From IMG/VR virus record IMGVR_UViG_3300022920_000004, positions 35,001-99,000 of that record: 64,000 nucleotides of DNA. The stretch is one strand, 5' to 3'. Each line of letters opens with the position of its first letter. Positions within the stretch are counted from its first letter, which is position 1. A program made the translations under genes and the position numbers. This document shows positions 36,825 to 46,977 of this stretch, one piece after another. The notes beneath the pieces were generated by a model that was not told the origin of the DNA, did not search any database, and saw only the letters and a program-made list of their open reading frames with translations. The stretch comes from a virus.

Positions 36825-37217
36825 ATGAAAAATAAATATTACACACCAAGTATTGAAGAATTCTATGTAGGGTTTGAATGTGAGATATATGATGACGATG
36901 ATAAAACTTGGGATTTAGTATATGTTGATACACAACCAGGTCTTTGTAATATTACTGGGTTAGATTTAGATATTAGAGTCAAATACCTAGACAAATCTGA
37001 TATAGAGGATTTGGGGTTTACACATATAGGTGCTTTATGGTTTGAGAGTAAAGAACTTGATTGTAGAATTAGAAAATGGAAGGGTTTAGAGATTGATATC
37101 TACCACGATTGGAGTAGAAATGATGGTGAACACACTGATCATTATAAAGTCTTCAGAGGAACTATTAAAAACAAATCTGAATTAAAAATACTCTTAAAAC
37201 AACTTAATATAAAGTAA
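36825..37217 (+). CDS. Constant/variable family protein, copy 1
   Basis: YYTPSIEEFYVGFE / RVKYLDKSDIEDLGF / IKNKSELK..LKQLNI. Confidence 0.75.
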   Translation: MKNKYYTPSIEEFYVGFECEIYDDDDKTWDLVYVDTQPGLCNITGLDLDIRVKYLDKSDIEDLGFTHIGALWFESKELDCRIRKWKGLEIDIYHDWSRNDGEHTDHYKVFRGTIKNKSELKILLKQLNIK

Positions 37218-37434: not shown

Positions 37435-37636
37435 AGCACCTAATAATAAAATATATAAATATGAAGGAAGAATTTAAATGGATTAATTATGATGAGTGGA
37501 AGTTTGAAAAGACTAGGGGTAGAAGTATTATATGGAAAGGTTTATCTAAAGAGACTTATCCTAAAGTAAAAGACGTTGTTGAACGTTATATTATAGGATG
37601 TGATCCTTATGATGAAGCACCTAATAAATAAAATAT
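37435..37636 (+). repeat. Direct repeat AGCACCTAATAA(A)TAAAATATA (37435-37455 and 37616-37636)
   Basis: Each copy lies just upstream of a mini-ORF start; core also at 36085 and inverted at 37830. Confidence 0.75.
37461..37631 (+). CDS. 56-aa mini-protein resembling the TerL nuclease active-site strand
   Basis: Manual translation ends ...ERYIIGCDPYDEAPNK; TerL has GRYIAGIDPIDAD. Confidence 0.6.
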   Translation: MKEEFKWINYDEWKFEKTRGRSIIWKGLSKETYPKVKDVVERYIIGCDPYDEAPNK

Positions 37637-39598: not shown

Positions 39599-39958
39599 AT
39601 GGAGAAATATTATACACCTGAAATTGAAGAGTTTCATGTTGGTTTTGAATATGAATATAATTACGAAGAAGGTATTACTAGGGTTTTAGGTACTAATGAT
39701 ACAGTAGATACTGAAGAGGTTAGAGTTAAATATTTAGATAAAGAAGATATAGAGAGTTTGGGGTTTAAGCTAGATAATGTACATAACGAGGTTAAATTTA
39801 ACTACTTAATGTTTCCTTATAGATTAGAGCATACACCTCATAACAACAGGTTAGATATCTATAAATGGGGTGACGAGTGCGATATGATAGGTTATATTAA
39901 CATCAAAAATAAATCAGAGTTAAAAAGATTATTAAAACAATTAAATATAATTGAATAA
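39599..39958 (+). CDS. Constant/variable family protein, copy 2
   Basis: YYTPEIEEFHVGFE / RVKYLDKEDIESLGF / IKNKSELKRLLKQLNI. Confidence 0.75.
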   Translation: MEKYYTPEIEEFHVGFEYEYNYEEGITRVLGTNDTVDTEEVRVKYLDKEDIESLGFKLDNVHNEVKFNYLMFPYRLEHTPHNNRLDIYKWGDECDMIGYINIKNKSELKRLLKQLNIIE

Positions 39959-40257: not shown

Positions 40258-40526
40258 TGAATAAGGTACAACAAAGTATTGTTCAGGATAATTATATTTC
40301 TAAACATCCTGAGTTATATAACATTATGAAACAACGATGTGAAGAGATGTTAAAAATTAAAACTATTGAATTCCATGATAAATTAGATGATAATAATTTA
40401 ACAGTTGTTGGAAGTGATAGTGGTAATATGTATTTTAAAACTGGTGTTGGAGAAATTACTAAAGAAGAATTTCTTAAAATAATGGAAGGAAAAACAATTG
40501 AATATGAAGAACGGGAAGATAGCTAA
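40257..40526 (+). CDS. Hypothetical protein
   Basis: 89-aa ORF, coupled. Confidence 0.55.
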   Translation: MNKVQQSIVQDNYISKHPELYNIMKQRCEEMLKIKTIEFHDKLDDNNLTVVGSDSGNMYFKTGVGEITKEEFLKIMEGKTIEYEEREDS

Positions 40527-40893
40527 TATTAATGTTAGTAGAAAGCGTTTATATTATAGGTGGTTAGAAATAACTAAACCTTTTCATAAACTAACTTCTC
40601 AACAACATAATATACTAAGCTTATTATTATACTATTTCTTTGAATATAGAAAGGATATAACTAATGATAAGTTATGTTGGAAGATGGTTTTTGATTACGA
40701 TACCAAGCAACTAATAAAGAAAGAACTTGGTATTAAAGACCCTAATCTACAGAATGTATTAACATCACTTAGAAAGAAAGGTGTAGTTATTGACAATGAG
40801 ATTGTATCTACTTATATACCAAATATAGAAGTTGATAGTAATAATTTTAAGATAATATTTAATTTTAATATTGTAGAAGATGGAAAGCAATAA
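40498..40893 (+). CDS. Winged-helix DNA-binding protein
   Basis: IKKELGIKDPNLQNVLTSLRKKGVVI HTH-wing pattern. Confidence 0.6.
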   Translation: MNMKNGKIANINVSRKRLYYRWLEITKPFHKLTSQQHNILSLLLYYFFEYRKDITNDKLCWKMVFDYDTKQLIKKELGIKDPNLQNVLTSLRKKGVVIDNEIVSTYIPNIEVDSNNFKIIFNFNIVEDGKQ

Positions 40894-41137
40894 AACTGTA
40901 ATAATAAAAAAATCTTTTAAAAGTAAACCTGATAGTTTAAGAGGGATACGTCCAGAAAATGCATTATTTCATATAGGAGACCCTGATATGGGAGAATTAA
41001 ATCATATTGAAGTTGAAGAGTTTAAAAAACTTTATGATGCTTGTAAACCTAAAAGTATTAATAATGTAGGTATAATAATAATAGGGACATCAGGAGAAAC
41101 CGATAATAATTTTAAAAATATTTTTTATGGAAAGTAA
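40880..41137 (+). CDS. 85-aa mini-protein resembling the TerL ATPase Walker-B/coupling segment
   Basis: PDSLRGIR...GIIIIGTSG...FKNIFY vs TerL PEKARGIR...GFMLAGGTGG...SEKLFY. Confidence 0.6.
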   Translation: MESNKTVIIKKSFKSKPDSLRGIRPENALFHIGDPDMGELNHIEVEEFKKLYDACKPKSINNVGIIIIGTSGETDNNFKNIFYGK

Positions 41138-41531
41138 ATACTATATACCAGATATATCTGAATTTTATGTTGGGTTTGAGTGTGAAGTTTATAATAAATA
41201 TTCAGAAGAATGGTATATTTTTTTATTTAACCAAGTTTTTGAAGACACATCTGTAGCGTATAATTTTACGGAAGGAAAATATAGAGTTAAATACTTAGAT
41301 AAATCTGATATAGAAAGTTTAGGGTTTAAACAAATAACTGATGACTGTTTTAATTTACCTTTAAATGATGATGAAGAACTTAGGTTATTGTATGAAGATA
41401 ATATTATAGTTATTTTCTTAGCTGACCAATATAACCGTAGTTTATTTAGGGGTTTAATTAAAAACAAATCTGAATTAAAGAAAGTTTTAAAACAATTAAA
41501 TATTGTAGATGAGGAAGAGAAGAAATCCTAA
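41127..41531 (+). CDS. Constant/variable family protein, copy 3
   Basis: YYIPDISEFYVGFE / RVKYLDKSDIESLGF / IKNKSELKKVLKQLNI. Confidence 0.75.
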   Translation: MESKYYIPDISEFYVGFECEVYNKYSEEWYIFLFNQVFEDTSVAYNFTEGKYRVKYLDKSDIESLGFKQITDDCFNLPLNDDEELRLLYEDNIIVIFLADQYNRSLFRGLIKNKSELKKVLKQLNIVDEEEKKS

Positions 41532-41796
41532 GCTTAAATCTGTAATACATAATATAATTAAAGATAATGAGATAACGGATCAACAGTTTGATGAAATAAC
41601 AGAATCTCCTTATAAGTTTACTAAAGAGACTATAGAGAAACTAAGTCTACAAACAGTAAATGAAGAAGAGTTTAATAAGTTAGAAACTAATTTTATGTAT
41701 AAGTTTATTGGTAAATTATATACTAATTATAGAATGGTTAAAGTAACACAAAATAGAGTATCAACATTTTTAAATAAGAATAAATGGAAGAAATAA
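41509..41796 (+). CDS. HU/IHF-like DNA-binding protein
   Basis: Two helices then NFMYKFIGKLY strand; position typical of crAss-like late modules. Confidence 0.5.
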   Translation: MRKRRNPKLKSVIHNIIKDNEITDQQFDEITESPYKFTKETIEKLSLQTVNEEEFNKLETNFMYKFIGKLYTNYRMVKVTQNRVSTFLNKNKWKK

Positions 41797-42143
41797 AACA
41801 CATGACACAGGAAGATGTAAACCAAGTAATTGAAGGTTTTCCAGTAGTACCAACATTTAATAAAGTATTAATTACTTTAAATACTGATGTAGAAGAAGAC
41901 GGATTAATTATATCTAATACTGGATTATCTGAAACACAATATATAGTTGCTAAAGGAGCTAATTGTACATTTGAAGTAGGACAGAAAGTTATAATTGATT
42001 TAGATAAGTTATCAGTTAAAGTACCTTCTGATACAGATCAAACACAAATGACTGTACAGATTAAAATTGATCCTATTCAAGTAGATGAGGTTATGTATAC
42101 ATTGATTGAAGATAGATTTATTAAAGCATTAGATAATAGATAA
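41784..42143 (+). CDS. GroES-like co-chaperonin
   Basis: PTFNKVLI, GLII mobile loop, IVAKG, VGQKVII, YTLIEDRFI. Confidence 0.7.
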   Translation: MEEIKHMTQEDVNQVIEGFPVVPTFNKVLITLNTDVEEDGLIISNTGLSETQYIVAKGANCTFEVGQKVIIDLDKLSVKVPSDTDQTQMTVQIKIDPIQVDEVMYTLIEDRFIKALDNR

Positions 42144-42460: not shown

Positions 42461-43018
42461 ATGAATCTATTTGAAATGAAAGATTGGGAACTCTCCATTG
42501 TTGAACAAGCATGGGGAATTCTCGCTTTTAAGAAGTTATTAACAAGAGATAAGTCTAAAGGTAAAACTAGGTCTCATTTAGAGATGCAGTTTATATGGCA
42601 TTATACAGATGTTAAATCTACTTATCAATATATAATTGACTTAGAAGTACGAACAGAAGAAATTAAGAAAGACATTGGATTACCTAAAACTTGGAAAATT
42701 GATAATGATGTGCAGGCTGCTATTGATCTTTATGAGGAACGTAGTAGTACTATTATAGAAGCTTTATATAAACAAACTTTAAAATCTGCATCTGCTATTG
42801 GTGAATATTTAGGTAGAACTAAAGAGTTGTTAGGTGAACGAGATGCTCAAGGTAAAATCATTACGGATATATCTAAGATTACTGGGGCTGTAAGTAAGAT
42901 GCCTAATTTAATGCGTGATTTAAAAGCAGCTTATAAGGAAGTTGTTATAGAGCAAGAGGAAGCTGATAGTAAAAAGAAAGGTGTAAGAACATTTAATACA
43001 TTTGAAGACGGTATATAA
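42461..43018 (+). CDS. Putative terminase small subunit
   Basis: RDKSK.K motif, helical, shortly upstream of TerL as in crAss-like phages. Confidence 0.55.
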   Translation: MNLFEMKDWELSIVEQAWGILAFKKLLTRDKSKGKTRSHLEMQFIWHYTDVKSTYQYIIDLEVRTEEIKKDIGLPKTWKIDNDVQAAIDLYEERSSTIIEALYKQTLKSASAIGEYLGRTKELLGERDAQGKIITDISKITGAVSKMPNLMRDLKAAYKEVVIEQEEADSKKKGVRTFNTFEDGI

Positions 43019-43019
43019 T

Positions 43020-43256
43020 ATGGAAGAAAATAATAGAGGAACGGGTAGAACTACTAGGTTAGTTCAATTTTATATAGATAAGTTATTTACAACAACTGAT
43101 GAGGTTATAATTTATGATCATTATGACCATAAAATAGCTCATAAGTTTTTAACTGATGCTATAATTAGACGTATGCATAATGAAATACTTCTTAGAAGAA
43201 AAGATCTTATTTTAAAAAGAATTAATTCAAATATATTACAATTAACAAAAATATAA
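43020..43256 (+). CDS. Small protein with N-terminal P-loop-like motif
   Basis: RGTGRTTRL; start set to ATG 43020. Confidence 0.55.
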   Translation: MEENNRGTGRTTRLVQFYIDKLFTTTDEVIIYDHYDHKIAHKFLTDAIIRRMHNEILLRRKDLILKRINSNILQLTKI

Positions 43257-44722
43257 TGGAAGAAATTATATCAAATAAAGAAGTATTAACTAAATTACTA
43301 GGTGGTATAGATAAACTAGCTAATACAGTTAAAGTAACTTTAGGACCGAGTGGTAATACAGTTATTATAGCTGATGAATATGGTAAACCTTATGCTACTA
43401 AAGATGGTGTATCAGTATCTAACTATATTAATCTTAAAGACCCTGTAGAAAATATAGGTGTTACAATGATTAAAGAAGTAGCTAAGAAGACTGCTGATGA
43501 AGCTGGTGATGGTACTACAACAAGTATTGTATTAGCTCAAGCACTTATAACTAACGGTATTAAGTTTTTAAACGATGGTGGTACTTATAATGATATTAAA
43601 GAAATTTATTCTACATTATTACCAAAAGTATTAAATCTCATTAAAGATGCCTCTACTACAATTACTGCTGATGATATTGTAGATGTAGCTACTGTATCTG
43701 CTAATAATGATCGTGAAATAGGAGAATTAATACAAGTAGCATTTAATCATTCCACAGTAGTTAAAGTTGAAGAAGGTAAAGCTATTAAAGATAGTTTAGA
43801 GTTAATAACAGGTGTAACATATCCTGTAACATACTTTAGTAAGAAGTTTATAACTAATGAAGCTAAAAATACTGCTGAGATTAATGATGCTGCTGTATTA
43901 TTACTTGGTTGTAAGTTAGATAAATTAGATAACTTAAAGAAAGTATTAACTTATTGTAATAAAGAAGAAAAACCACTATTAATAATAACAGAGTTTATTA
44001 GTGATGATGCTTTACATATGCTGGAGACTAATCATATTAATAATGCTTTAAAAATACTGGCAGTTAAAACACCTGGTTACGCTAACTATAGAAATGAGTA
44101 TATAAAAGATTTAAGTGATCTTACTGATAGTATTATTATAGATGATCTTTCTAAAATGGTTGAAGTAGAGCGATTAGGTAGAATTAAAAGTGTAACAGCT
44201 AAATCTAATGAAACGGTATTAATTCCATATGATGATATTGATATTGAGCAAAGAATTACCAACCTCTTTACATTAAGTAAACAACCTAATTTAGGAGGTT
44301 ATGATAAAAAGATTTTATTAGAAAGAATTGATAATCTTAATGGAAAAGTATCTATTATTAAAGTAGGTGCTAAGTCTGAGATTGAAATGAAAGAACGTTA
44401 TGATAGAATTGAAGATGCTGTGTATGCAGTATCATCAGCACTAGAAGAAGGTGTCTTAGAGGGTGGTGGAGTAGCTTTATATAAGATTGCAGACACTTTA
44501 GATATTGACAGTAGTAAATCACTACATTTAATATTACAAGCTCTTAGAGCTCCTAATAAGACTATTAATGAAAATGGTGCTAAAGTTAATCCTTTTATAT
44601 TTGATGATTACACAGTAGTTGATCCTACTAAAGTAACTAGATGTGCTTTAGAAAATGCAGCATCTGTAGCATTAACTATATTAGGAACTAAAGCAGTTGT
44701 ATTAAATGAACATTTATGGTAG
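43256..44722 (+). CDS. groEL: GroEL-like chaperonin
   Basis: TLGPSG, TKDGVSV, AGDGTTT, IKVGA.SEIEMKE..DRIEDA, EEG..GGG, VDPTKVTR.ALENA.S. Confidence 0.95.
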   Translation: MEEIISNKEVLTKLLGGIDKLANTVKVTLGPSGNTVIIADEYGKPYATKDGVSVSNYINLKDPVENIGVTMIKEVAKKTADEAGDGTTTSIVLAQALITNGIKFLNDGGTYNDIKEIYSTLLPKVLNLIKDASTTITADDIVDVATVSANNDREIGELIQVAFNHSTVVKVEEGKAIKDSLELITGVTYPVTYFSKKFITNEAKNTAEINDAAVLLLGCKLDKLDNLKKVLTYCNKEEKPLLIITEFISDDALHMLETNHINNALKILAVKTPGYANYRNEYIKDLSDLTDSIIIDDLSKMVEVERLGRIKSVTAKSNETVLIPYDDIDIEQRITNLFTLSKQPNLGGYDKKILLERIDNLNGKVSIIKVGAKSEIEMKERYDRIEDAVYAVSSALEEGVLEGGGVALYKIADTLDIDSSKSLHLILQALRAPNKTINENGAKVNPFIFDDYTVVDPTKVTRCALENAASVALTILGTKAVVLNEHLW

Positions 44723-46977
44723 ATTTATTAAGTTTAAAGTTAAACAAATATCAAACACCTATAACACAAGAATTAAAAGATTCTTTACATAAGGAAGTAT
44801 GGAATGATTTAGAAGAATATATTTCTACAGTATCATTTATAGAACATATGATATCAGATGAAACTGTTCGTGGTTATGCTAGAGATAAACCTCGTAATAG
44901 TAATGGTCGTATAACTGTAGACTTAACTAAACCTCATATATTAGAAGATATAGATTTTTTTAGAGAGAAAGCTTTATTCTTTGAAAAAAATGGTAAATAT
45001 ACTAATATACCTGTTAATTCAAACCCTAAATCAGAATATGCTGCTTTTTGGAAACAAGAGTTGTATAGATGGGAACATGGTTTAACTAGGGAATCTGATG
45101 GTGAATGGATACCAGGAGAATTATATTTTTACTGGAACTATAGTCCTATATGGTTAGTTAAAGAAGATAAAACTAATAGTAGTGATAATAAAAAGAGTAA
45201 AGGTAAGCGGGTTAGAGAATTTCCTAAACCTTGGTCTGGAGACTATTTATTTCATCATTATATAGAGCAAGCTAAAACTAATGGTAAACATGGTAAACTA
45301 TTAAAATGTAGGGGAATTGGGTTTAGTTTTAAATGTGCTTCTTGGAGCCCAAGAAATATGTATATATACCCAGGTTCAGGTAATCCTAACTTTCATTTAG
45401 CTTCAGAGAAATCCTTTTTGCAAGGAGATAAAGGAATTTTTGGTAAAGTAATGGATTGTTTAGATTGGATAGCTGATAATACACCTTTTGCTAAACTTAG
45501 ACTTACAGATAGTAAGAAAGGGATGGAAATTCAGTTAGGTTATTTAGATGATTATGGTGTACGTAGAGGATTATTATCATCTGTATTTGGTATATCATTA
45601 AAAGATAATCCTGAAAAAGCAAGGGGTATTCGTGGACCTTTAATTCATTATGAAGAAGACGGTTTATTTCCTAACTTAGAAACAGCTTGGAACGTAAATA
45701 GAAAGGCTGTTGAGGATGGAGATGTATCATTTGGATTTATGCTTGCTGGTGGAACTGGAGGAACTGAAGGGGCTTCATTTGAAGGATCTGAAAAGTTATT
45801 CTATAAAGCTGATGCATATAATATATATTCCATACCTAATGCGTTTGATAAGAATGTTAAAGGTGTTACAAACTGTGGTTACTTTTGGGGTGCTTATATA
45901 AATCGTAATAAATGTTATGATGAATCTGTTGGAGAATCTGATGTTGTAAAAGCGTTAATAGAAATATTACAAGATAGATTTTTAGTAAAATATAATTCAT
46001 CAGATCCAAAAGCTATTACACAAAAGAAAGCTGAAGAATGTATAACACCTCAAGAAGCTGTATTAAGAGTTGATGGTACTATATTCCCTGTAGCTGATTT
46101 GAAGGATTATTTAGAAGATATATTTCCACGCAAAGAATCTTTCTTAGCCGAACATTATGTAGGTGATTTAACATATAAAAATGATGGTGGGGTTAAATGG
46201 ACTCCTAATCCAAGTTTATATCCAATTAGATCATATTCTAATGTACCAGCTAATAAACGAGGTGCTGTAGAGATATTTGAAATGCCTAAAAAGAATGGTA
46301 GGGGAGAAATAGCTAGTGGTAGATATATTGCAGGTATTGACCCTATTGATGCTGATACAGGTAACTCATTATTCTCAATGTTAGTAATGGATACATTTAC
46401 TGATAGAATAGTTGCTGAATATACTGGAAGACCTAGAACTGCTAAAGATGCTTATGAAATAACATTAAAGTTATTAATATTTTATAATGCTCAAGCTAAC
46501 TATGAGAACAACTTAAAAGGTTTATTTAGTTATTTTGACAATAAGAATGCACTTTATTTATTAAGTGATACTCCTCAAATCATTCGTGATATGGAGTTAA
46601 CTAAAGCAACTAATGTATATGGAAATAAAGCAAAAGGAACTAACGCAAACGCTAGATTAAACAGTTGGGCTAGATTATTACAAGTAGATTGGTTATTAGC
46701 CAAAGTAAGTAAAGAAGAAGGAGCTGATGATAAGCGACTAAATATACATAGATTAAGATCTATTGGTTATATTGAAGAGCTAATATATTGGAATCCTGAT
46801 GGTAACTTTGATAGGGTATCTGCAGCAGGTATGTTATTTATACTAAGAGAAGATAGACTAAAACGTACTGTAACAGCTAAAGATAATCAATATAAAAAGG
46901 TTAATACTTTAGCTAATGATCCTTATTTTAATAAGAATTATAAAGGTGGTATGGGTTTAGATAAATTAATAAAGTAA
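44716..46977 (+). CDS. terL: Terminase large subunit
   Basis: YFYWNY, KCRGIGFS, HYEEDG Walker B, GGTGG, GIDPID, NYENN, GNFDRVSA. Confidence 0.93.
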   Translation: MVDLLSLKLNKYQTPITQELKDSLHKEVWNDLEEYISTVSFIEHMISDETVRGYARDKPRNSNGRITVDLTKPHILEDIDFFREKALFFEKNGKYTNIPVNSNPKSEYAAFWKQELYRWEHGLTRESDGEWIPGELYFYWNYSPIWLVKEDKTNSSDNKKSKGKRVREFPKPWSGDYLFHHYIEQAKTNGKHGKLLKCRGIGFSFKCASWSPRNMYIYPGSGNPNFHLASEKSFLQGDKGIFGKVMDCLDWIADNTPFAKLRLTDSKKGMEIQLGYLDDYGVRRGLLSSVFGISLKDNPEKARGIRGPLIHYEEDGLFPNLETAWNVNRKAVEDGDVSFGFMLAGGTGGTEGASFEGSEKLFYKADAYNIYSIPNAFDKNVKGVTNCGYFWGAYINRNKCYDESVGESDVVKALIEILQDRFLVKYNSSDPKAITQKKAEECITPQEAVLRVDGTIFPVADLKDYLEDIFPRKESFLAEHYVGDLTYKNDGGVKWTPNPSLYPIRSYSNVPANKRGAVEIFEMPKKNGRGEIASGRYIAGIDPIDADTGNSLFSMLVMDTFTDRIVAEYTGRPRTAKDAYEITLKLLIFYNAQANYENNLKGLFSYFDNKNALYLLSDTPQIIRDMELTKATNVYGNKAKGTNANARLNSWARLLQVDWLLAKVSKEEGADDKRLNIHRLRSIGYIEELIYWNPDGNFDRVSAAGMLFILREDRLKRTVTAKDNQYKKVNTLANDPYFNKNYKGGMGLDKLIK

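Follow-up and report, generated by a model that had tools for sequence, protein, structure and literature searches.

Why does a phage with an intact large terminase (TerL) also carry, 3.6 kb upstream of it, a separate and optional gene that reads like a piece of the TerL ATPase core? Among phage proteins, bacterial immune sensors rely most widely on the large terminase as an infection signature. The gene, ORF85, lies in a stretch of 64,000 nucleotides (the window), corresponding to bases 35001–99000 of a 99-kb IMG/VR virus record that is estimated to be 98% complete. The runs holding the window sequence are seawater or marine metagenomes, and the source of the window is a marine crAss-like phage (Crassvirales). 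A sequence-only reading had described ORF85 as colinear with the phage's own TerL, catalytically dead and translationally coupled to both of its neighbours.

Gene layout and the resident terminase

The features around ORF85 are as follows.

40498..40893, plus strand: upstream gene, 131 aa, with weak winged-helix matches; conserved in ~47 related loci
40880..41137, plus strand: ORF85, 85 aa, an intact, TerL-core-derived mini-protein
41127..41531, plus strand: downstream accessory gene, 134 aa; one of three window paralogues (36825, 39599, 41127)
44716..46977, plus strand: resident large terminase, 753 aa, matching phrog_6681 at 4.6e-105; its AF2 model matches known TerLs
45583..45807, plus strand: TerL residues 290–364, colinear with ORF85 according to the profile alignment and the TerL model

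The 85-aa frame at 40880–41137 was found to be intact. Its ATG is located 14 nt inside the upstream gene, within the last codons of the latter (stop at 40891–40893), and its own stop (41135–41137) is 11 nt inside the downstream gene (ATG at 41127), within the first codons. The overlaps with both neighbours are real in this sense; translational coupling itself would be deduced from these overlaps only. Along the protein, a strand is followed by a P-D-x-x-R-G loop, the degenerate Walker B strand LFHIGDPD, a helix, the C-motif strand IIIIGTSG and a short helix. Pfam and PHROG scans with ORF85 itself gave no matches. The AF2 monomer yielded a pLDDT of 49.9, too poor for a fold search, and the Atlas model scored 0.40, with meaningless structural neighbours. 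The ORF85 monomer is predicted to be poorly folded in isolation. Co-folding with TerL residues 80–500 resulted in an ipSAE of 0.01, which counts neither for nor against an interaction.

The window TerL shares ~41% identity with TerLs from crAss-like phages of the gut, and its AF2 model (pLDDT 82) matches T4 gp17, Sf6 gp2, D6E and P74-26 TerL. In this model, the segment matched by ORF85 comprises a strand (286–294), the Arg loop, the Walker B strand (309–313), a helix (321–329), the C-motif strand (341–346) and a further helix (355–363). Across 30 TerLs, R303-G304 of the loop, E313-E314 at the end of the Walker B strand and G346-T347-x-G349 of the C-motif are invariant. The Walker A block occupies residues 197–206 (K197/R199/G202/S204/K206).

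Two further observations concern the terminase gene. A phage-encoded 488-aa chaperonin of the Cpn60/GroEL family (43256–44722, plus strand; PF00118, E = 3e-47) overlaps the start of the TerL gene with its last 7 nt, and a 119-aa ORF near the chaperonin gene (41784–42143) gave no Cpn10 match. In some relatives (L153:8834–10000, P0007, P0009 and P0015), an in-frame insertion of ~390 aa splits TerL at the C-motif, downstream of about residue 333. Long TerLs of relatives contain LAGLIDADG and intein Pfam domains, and these interruptions at the coupling motif look like inteins by sequence.

Homology to TerL

Plain comparison of ORF85 with the TerL of its own phage gave no BLASTP match, and its Smith–Waterman score was reached by 4–20% of shuffles (p ~0.04–0.2). 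Therefore, the earlier alignment by eye is, taken alone, not beyond chance. For the profile comparisons, a TerL profile of 30 sequences was used, covering both the window's crAss clade and that of L081, another crAss-like phage. Against this profile, hhalign placed residues 7–78 of ORF85 alone on TerL 289–355 (P = 4.9e-4). A profile of nine members of the ORF85 family (see below) placed ORF85 8–84 on window TerL 290–364 (Prob 83%, P = 8.7e-6). The proposed colinearity with the resident TerL was thus recovered in position by the profiles, although it did not hold for the plain pair. As an empirical null, 81 small ORFs of the window were aligned with the TerL profile. The only outliers were ORF 37461 (8.6e-5) and ORF85 (4.8e-4); the next best value was 0.014 and the median 0.33.

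The TerL of L081 was matched by ORF85 in BLASTP with E = 4e-5 (residues 5–73 on 270–336). L081 itself carries a family member, P0131, located 3 kb upstream of its 725-aa TerL. P0131 matched the TerL of its own contig with E = 5e-7 and 36% identity over 69 aa (2–70 on 273–339), and the alignment includes an identical P-D-A-A-R-G-K-D. The sequence-only reading had suggested a comparison with terminase profiles, and this did not refute it: the sole PHROG match of P0131 is the crAss terminase family phrog_6681 (E = 0.008, profile positions 278–336). When the family HMM was run over 26,264 six-frame ORFs, the true members were followed by dozens of L081-clade TerLs, all of them aligned at residues ~270–340. 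In the reverse direction, a TerL HMM gave ~0 bits against single family sequences, this method being too insensitive. PDB sequence searches yielded chance matches only for the family profile (E ≥ 0.26) and none at E ≤ 0.01 for the TerL profile.

A generic strand-helix-strand motif resembling TerL by chance would agree with the non-significant pair of ORF85 and its own TerL and with the ~0 bits of the TerL HMM, but it is contradicted by the PHROG match of P0131, the BLASTP matches of both P0131 and ORF85 to the L081 TerL, the family-profile alignment, the 81-ORF null and the placement of dozens of TerLs at one position by the family HMM, and we regard it as extremely improbable. These comparisons indicate that ORF85 is truly homologous to crAss-type TerL, from the arginine loop through the Walker B strand and the helix to the C-motif strand.

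Retained and lost motifs

The Walker A motif is absent. No G-x-x-G-x-[KR]-[ST]-like loop occurs among the 85 residues, and the alignment begins at TerL 289–290, downstream of the Walker A block. The hydrophobic Walker B strand is kept, whereas the positions of E313 and E314 are taken by I/V-G or a gap; aspartates are found 1–3 residues downstream of the missing glutamates. The P-[DE]-x-x-R-G loop is present as K-P-D-S-L-R-G. In the family, its R-G is kept in ORF85, P0124, P0130, P0131 and the L104 member, and lost in P0127, P0128 and P0129. The C-motif G-T-x-G is also present: G69, T70 and G72, aligned to TerL G346, T347 and G349, are invariant in all nine aligned family members. ORF85 ends 13 residues past the C-motif, and the C-terminal RNase-H-like nuclease domain is absent. 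The TerL positions retained are K..P, R-G and G-T-x-G.

Without a P-loop and without Walker B glutamates in register, ORF85 does not qualify as an ATPase, and because three defining features fail (P-loop, catalytic EE and nuclease domain), it does not qualify as a terminase. Judged by these motifs, it cannot hydrolyse ATP. The earlier statements on the missing Walker A, the degenerate Walker B and the loss of catalysis are borne out. Compared with the crAss-like TerL ATPase (phrog_6681), ORF85 shares a homologous and colinear strand, P-[DE]-x-x-R-G loop, Walker B strand, helix, G-T-x-G strand and helix. In contrast, it covers only ~75 of ~750 residues, lacks Walker A, the in-register EE and the nuclease domain, and has invariant motifs of its own.

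A second ORF with a terminase motif

A 56-aa ORF at 37461–37631 (plus strand) ends with R-Y-I-I-G-C-D-P-Y-D, matching the nuclease catalytic strand of TerL (534–547). Its hhalign P against the TerL profile is ~8.6e-5 to 8.7e-5 over 14 columns, and its best non-self BLAST matches among the 26,264 ORFs are TerLs (9 of 11 residues identical, E = 0.03). The ORF is absent from a sister phage, L060, and sits in a separate replaced block near the array of five cassettes described below. Two members of the ORF85 family, P0128 and P0129, contain K-Y-I-A-G-C-D-P-I, which is similar to the end of ORF 37461.

A family moving between phage clades

The ORF85 family has at least 10 members, namely nine proteins including ORF85 and L104:7168–7422. 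They are 51–158 aa long and 45–55% identical to ORF85. A word-indexed search with ORF85 returned only itself. Exhaustive phmmer against 1.8 billion representatives retrieved five true relatives, P0124–P0128 (E = 3e-10 to 9e-5). The two top phmmer matches, P0122 and P0123, were discarded as spurious, since they are long repetitive proteins whose score is the sum of many weak stretches. A profile search added P0129–P0131, and a local HMM over 159 loci added the L104 member (9e-7). Neither tblastn with ORF85, P0131 and P0127 nor megablast of the ORF85 region found anything real among GenBank phages: the former returned no true relative and the latter no match.

The motifs of the family follow the order P-[DE]-x-x-R-G, a hydrophobic strand ending with G-D-P-D-M-G-x-L-N, a helix ending with [CA]-[KR]-P-K and a strand ending with G-T-x-G. 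ORF85 shows the pattern by which the family was delimited, h-h-h-h-G-D-P-D-M-G-x-L-N ... [CA]-[KR]-P-K ... G-T-x-G within 50–160 aa. DPDMG.LN and PK are invariant motifs of the family's own and are not TerL residues. Fusions occur: one member (P0127) has a KTSC domain, two have an acidic tail and some have SAM-like tails.

All family members that match TerL prefer the TerLs of the L081 clade, which are only 27–30% identical to the window TerL. The family members are ~46% identical across both clades. Since they are more alike than the TerLs of their phages, transfer between the clades is indicated. ORF85, which the sequence-only reading had set beside the TerL of its own phage, is thus no copy of that TerL but comes from another TerL clade. 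The simplest reading is that a TerL segment was captured once, long ago, in or close to the L081 clade, and that the family then spread horizontally. Concerted evolution with the resident TerL was considered, because the two window proteins share RGIR and the two L081 proteins share RGKD. It was rejected: P0131 fits a large number of TerLs from its clade to the same degree, and ORF85 fits foreign TerLs better than its own. An exon of a split TerL was also rejected for the window, L081 and L104, where TerL is intact and other genes closely flank the small one; this statement does not extend to the short contigs of P0124–P0126.

Codon alignments of the window member gave pN = 0.36 and pS = 0.64 with L081, and pN = 0.39 and pS = 0.70 with L082. 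These values are consistent with purifying selection on the family, the ratio being rough because synonymous sites are close to saturated. Members are rare: of ~45 loci of the L081-type clade, 2 carry one, and the ~47 loci of the window's clade yielded no member other than that of the window. The winged-helix-like upstream gene or its positional equivalent is present in the ~47 loci of the window's clade and the ~45 of the other. Among the loci examined, the window, L081 and L104 alone contain a member of the ORF85 family, and in all three it lies beside or close to this gene. What had been noted as a single ORF is thus no one-off but a member of a conserved, horizontally moving family.

Presence and absence of the cassette

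ORF85 coincides with a unit that is present or absent between closely related phages.

40880..41126, plus strand: cassette, 247 nt, present or absent; bounded by a direct repeat of 8 nt (exact) or 11 nt (with one mismatch)
40880..40890, plus strand: left repeat copy, ATGGAAAG(C)AA, which includes the start codon of ORF85 and the final codons of the upstream gene
41127..41137, plus strand: right repeat copy, ATGGAAAG(T)AA, which includes the stop of ORF85 and the beginning of the downstream gene

The sister phage L060 has a TerL 99% identical to that of the window and shares DNA blocks with it that are mostly 95–99% identical. It lacks exactly window 40880–41126. Because the loss is bounded by the ATGGAAAG repeat, the upstream and downstream genes overlap directly in L060. 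The same junction, 40879 joined to 41127, was found in seawater contigs of X3 and X4, two DNA runs from two further studies. Contigs with the cassette come from X1, which may be the source run, and from X2 and X6. In the contigs of the latter two, ORF85 shows no differences; X2 is an RNA library, but contigs are no indicator of transcription. Given the clean 247-nt indel relative to the sister phage and both alleles in independent seawater runs, ORF85 is a dispensable accessory gene in nature. The position of the short repeats on the start and stop junctions indicates that recombination between them inserts or removes the cassette.

The surrounding region behaves in a similar way. Between window 38711 and 43270, five gene-sized indels of 186, 247, 247, 318 and 238 nt separate the window from L060. 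They remove one ORF each (61, 89, 85, 103 and 84 aa), and each is flanked by an imperfect direct repeat of 3–20 nt over a start codon. By sequence, this looks like cassette turnover by microhomology.

Possible function of ORF85

ORF85 would act without catalysis, through its resemblance to TerL. It would occupy a partner that recognises the most conserved part of TerL, which is poorly folded in isolation. The likeliest partner would be a host terminase sensor (Avs2/Avs3-like or Upx-like), the packaging motor being a less likely one, and ORF85 would thereby take part in a phage-host or phage-phage conflict. We infer with a probability of roughly 0.4 that ORF85 acts by resemblance in a conflict, with the sensor decoy as the larger share.

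Avs2 and Upx sense the ATPase domain of TerL (Evans et al. 2026, PMC13601566). In a model, Upx binds or threads core strands in unfolded form through beta-augmentation; Avs2 grips a helix that has been drawn out of the nuclease core. The authors raise the possibility that TerL look-alikes serve as anti-defence proteins (PMC13601566). By analogy, a small unfolded core-strand fragment, together with the nuclease-strand piece of ORF 37461, fits that sensor picture. On the other hand, a look-alike could trigger sensors instead of blocking them, as T4 vs.8 does with EcAvs2. A bolder version of the decoy is that ORF85 and ORF 37461 are pre-unfolded terminase pieces plugging sensor pockets, and that fragment-decoy anti-defence cassettes circulate among marine crAss-like phages. 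We consider this version unlikely.

A comparable described protein is T4 vs.8, a stand-alone TerL-ATPase-like paralogue that has been discussed with terminase sensors (Evans et al. 2026, PMC13601566). Both are extra phage-encoded proteins descended from a terminase ATPase. However, vs.8 comprises the entire ATPase-like fold and retains both Walker motifs (PMC13601566), whereas ORF85 amounts to about one-third of the domain, has no P-loop and a degenerate Walker B, is crAss-type and is not predicted to fold alone. This distinction follows the published description of vs.8 (PMC13601566) and not a sequence comparison. We found no published description of the ORF85 family.

Three features speak against action by resemblance: the loop arginine is lost in P0127, P0128 and P0129, the family invariants DPDMG.LN and PK are not those of TerL, and few of the loci examined carry a member. 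A variable loop arginine along with non-TerL invariant residues makes a new function apart from mimicry possible. ORF85 would then be an exapted scaffold, that is, an old TerL capture now serving as a small regulatory or binding protein that relies on its family-specific residues. The fusion of some members to KTSC or to acidic or SAM-like tails would suit such a role, as would the position of the gene in three phages next to or near a conserved winged-helix-like gene. On the other hand, at ~30% overall identity, the positions kept in common with TerL are precisely those invariant in TerL (K..P, RG, G, GT.G), and the presence of a second mini-ORF with a TerL motif in the region argues that the likeness to TerL itself matters. 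We find the exapted scaffold somewhat unlikely.

The cassette turnover raises the question of whether ORF85 does anything at all. A TerL fragment may have been caught in microhomology-mediated shuffling and carried along without function. The five gene-sized indels with their 3–20-nt junction repeats, the dispensability of ORF85 in nature and the lack of a confidently predicted fold are what such a by-product would show. However, the frame is intact in every member despite saturated synonymous sites (dS at least 0.9–2), and pN is below pS. The conserved motifs are common to phages whose TerLs are only 27–30% identical, and the gene junctions are tight and overlapping. Neutral carriage is, on this evidence, quite unlikely.

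Finally, ORF85 may dock on TerL subunits, either those of the same phage or those of a competing one, and disturb or tune the assembly of the pentameric ATPase ring. It keeps the loop that carries a trans-acting arginine finger in other terminases (PMC7617512), the mapping of this function onto the crAss-type TerL being inferred, and the window ORF85 resembles the TerL of a competitor clade more than its own. Such a poison or modulator of the motor is improbable, as L081 and L104, phages of the other clade, carry the gene themselves and the arginine is not conserved in all members.

Returning to the look-alike, an ATPase-dead fragment of the most conserved TerL core is a concrete candidate for a terminase mimic in a conflict. 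The purifying selection, the movement between clades, the polymorphism in seawater and the adjoining second mini-gene with a terminase motif are the reasons to take this candidate seriously. ORF85 is small and easily synthesised. Even if the look-alike idea is wrong, the locus is a clean example of an essential-gene fragment turned into a new mobile gene.

Other genes of the variable region

The last of the five cassettes contains an 84-aa ORF (43002–43256, plus strand; absent from L060) in which a P-loop-like G-T-G-R-T-T precedes a hydrophobic strand with D as its last residue. The G-T-G-R-T-T suggested a Walker A piece of TerL, and this was rejected (hhalign P = 0.27). The three paralogues at 36825–37217, 39599–39958 and 41127–41531 (all plus strand) share an N-terminal Y-Y-x-P-x-I-x-E-F-x-V-G-F-E and a C-terminal K-N-K-S-E-L-K..L-K-Q-L-N-I. 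Their homologues gave 18 scattered matches in related loci, often at the junction where ORF85 is located. In a 69.6-kb contig of X4, the 169 nt at window 41301–41471, inside the downstream paralogue, are replaced by 208 other letters, which suggests that the variable middle of this gene is swapped between strains.
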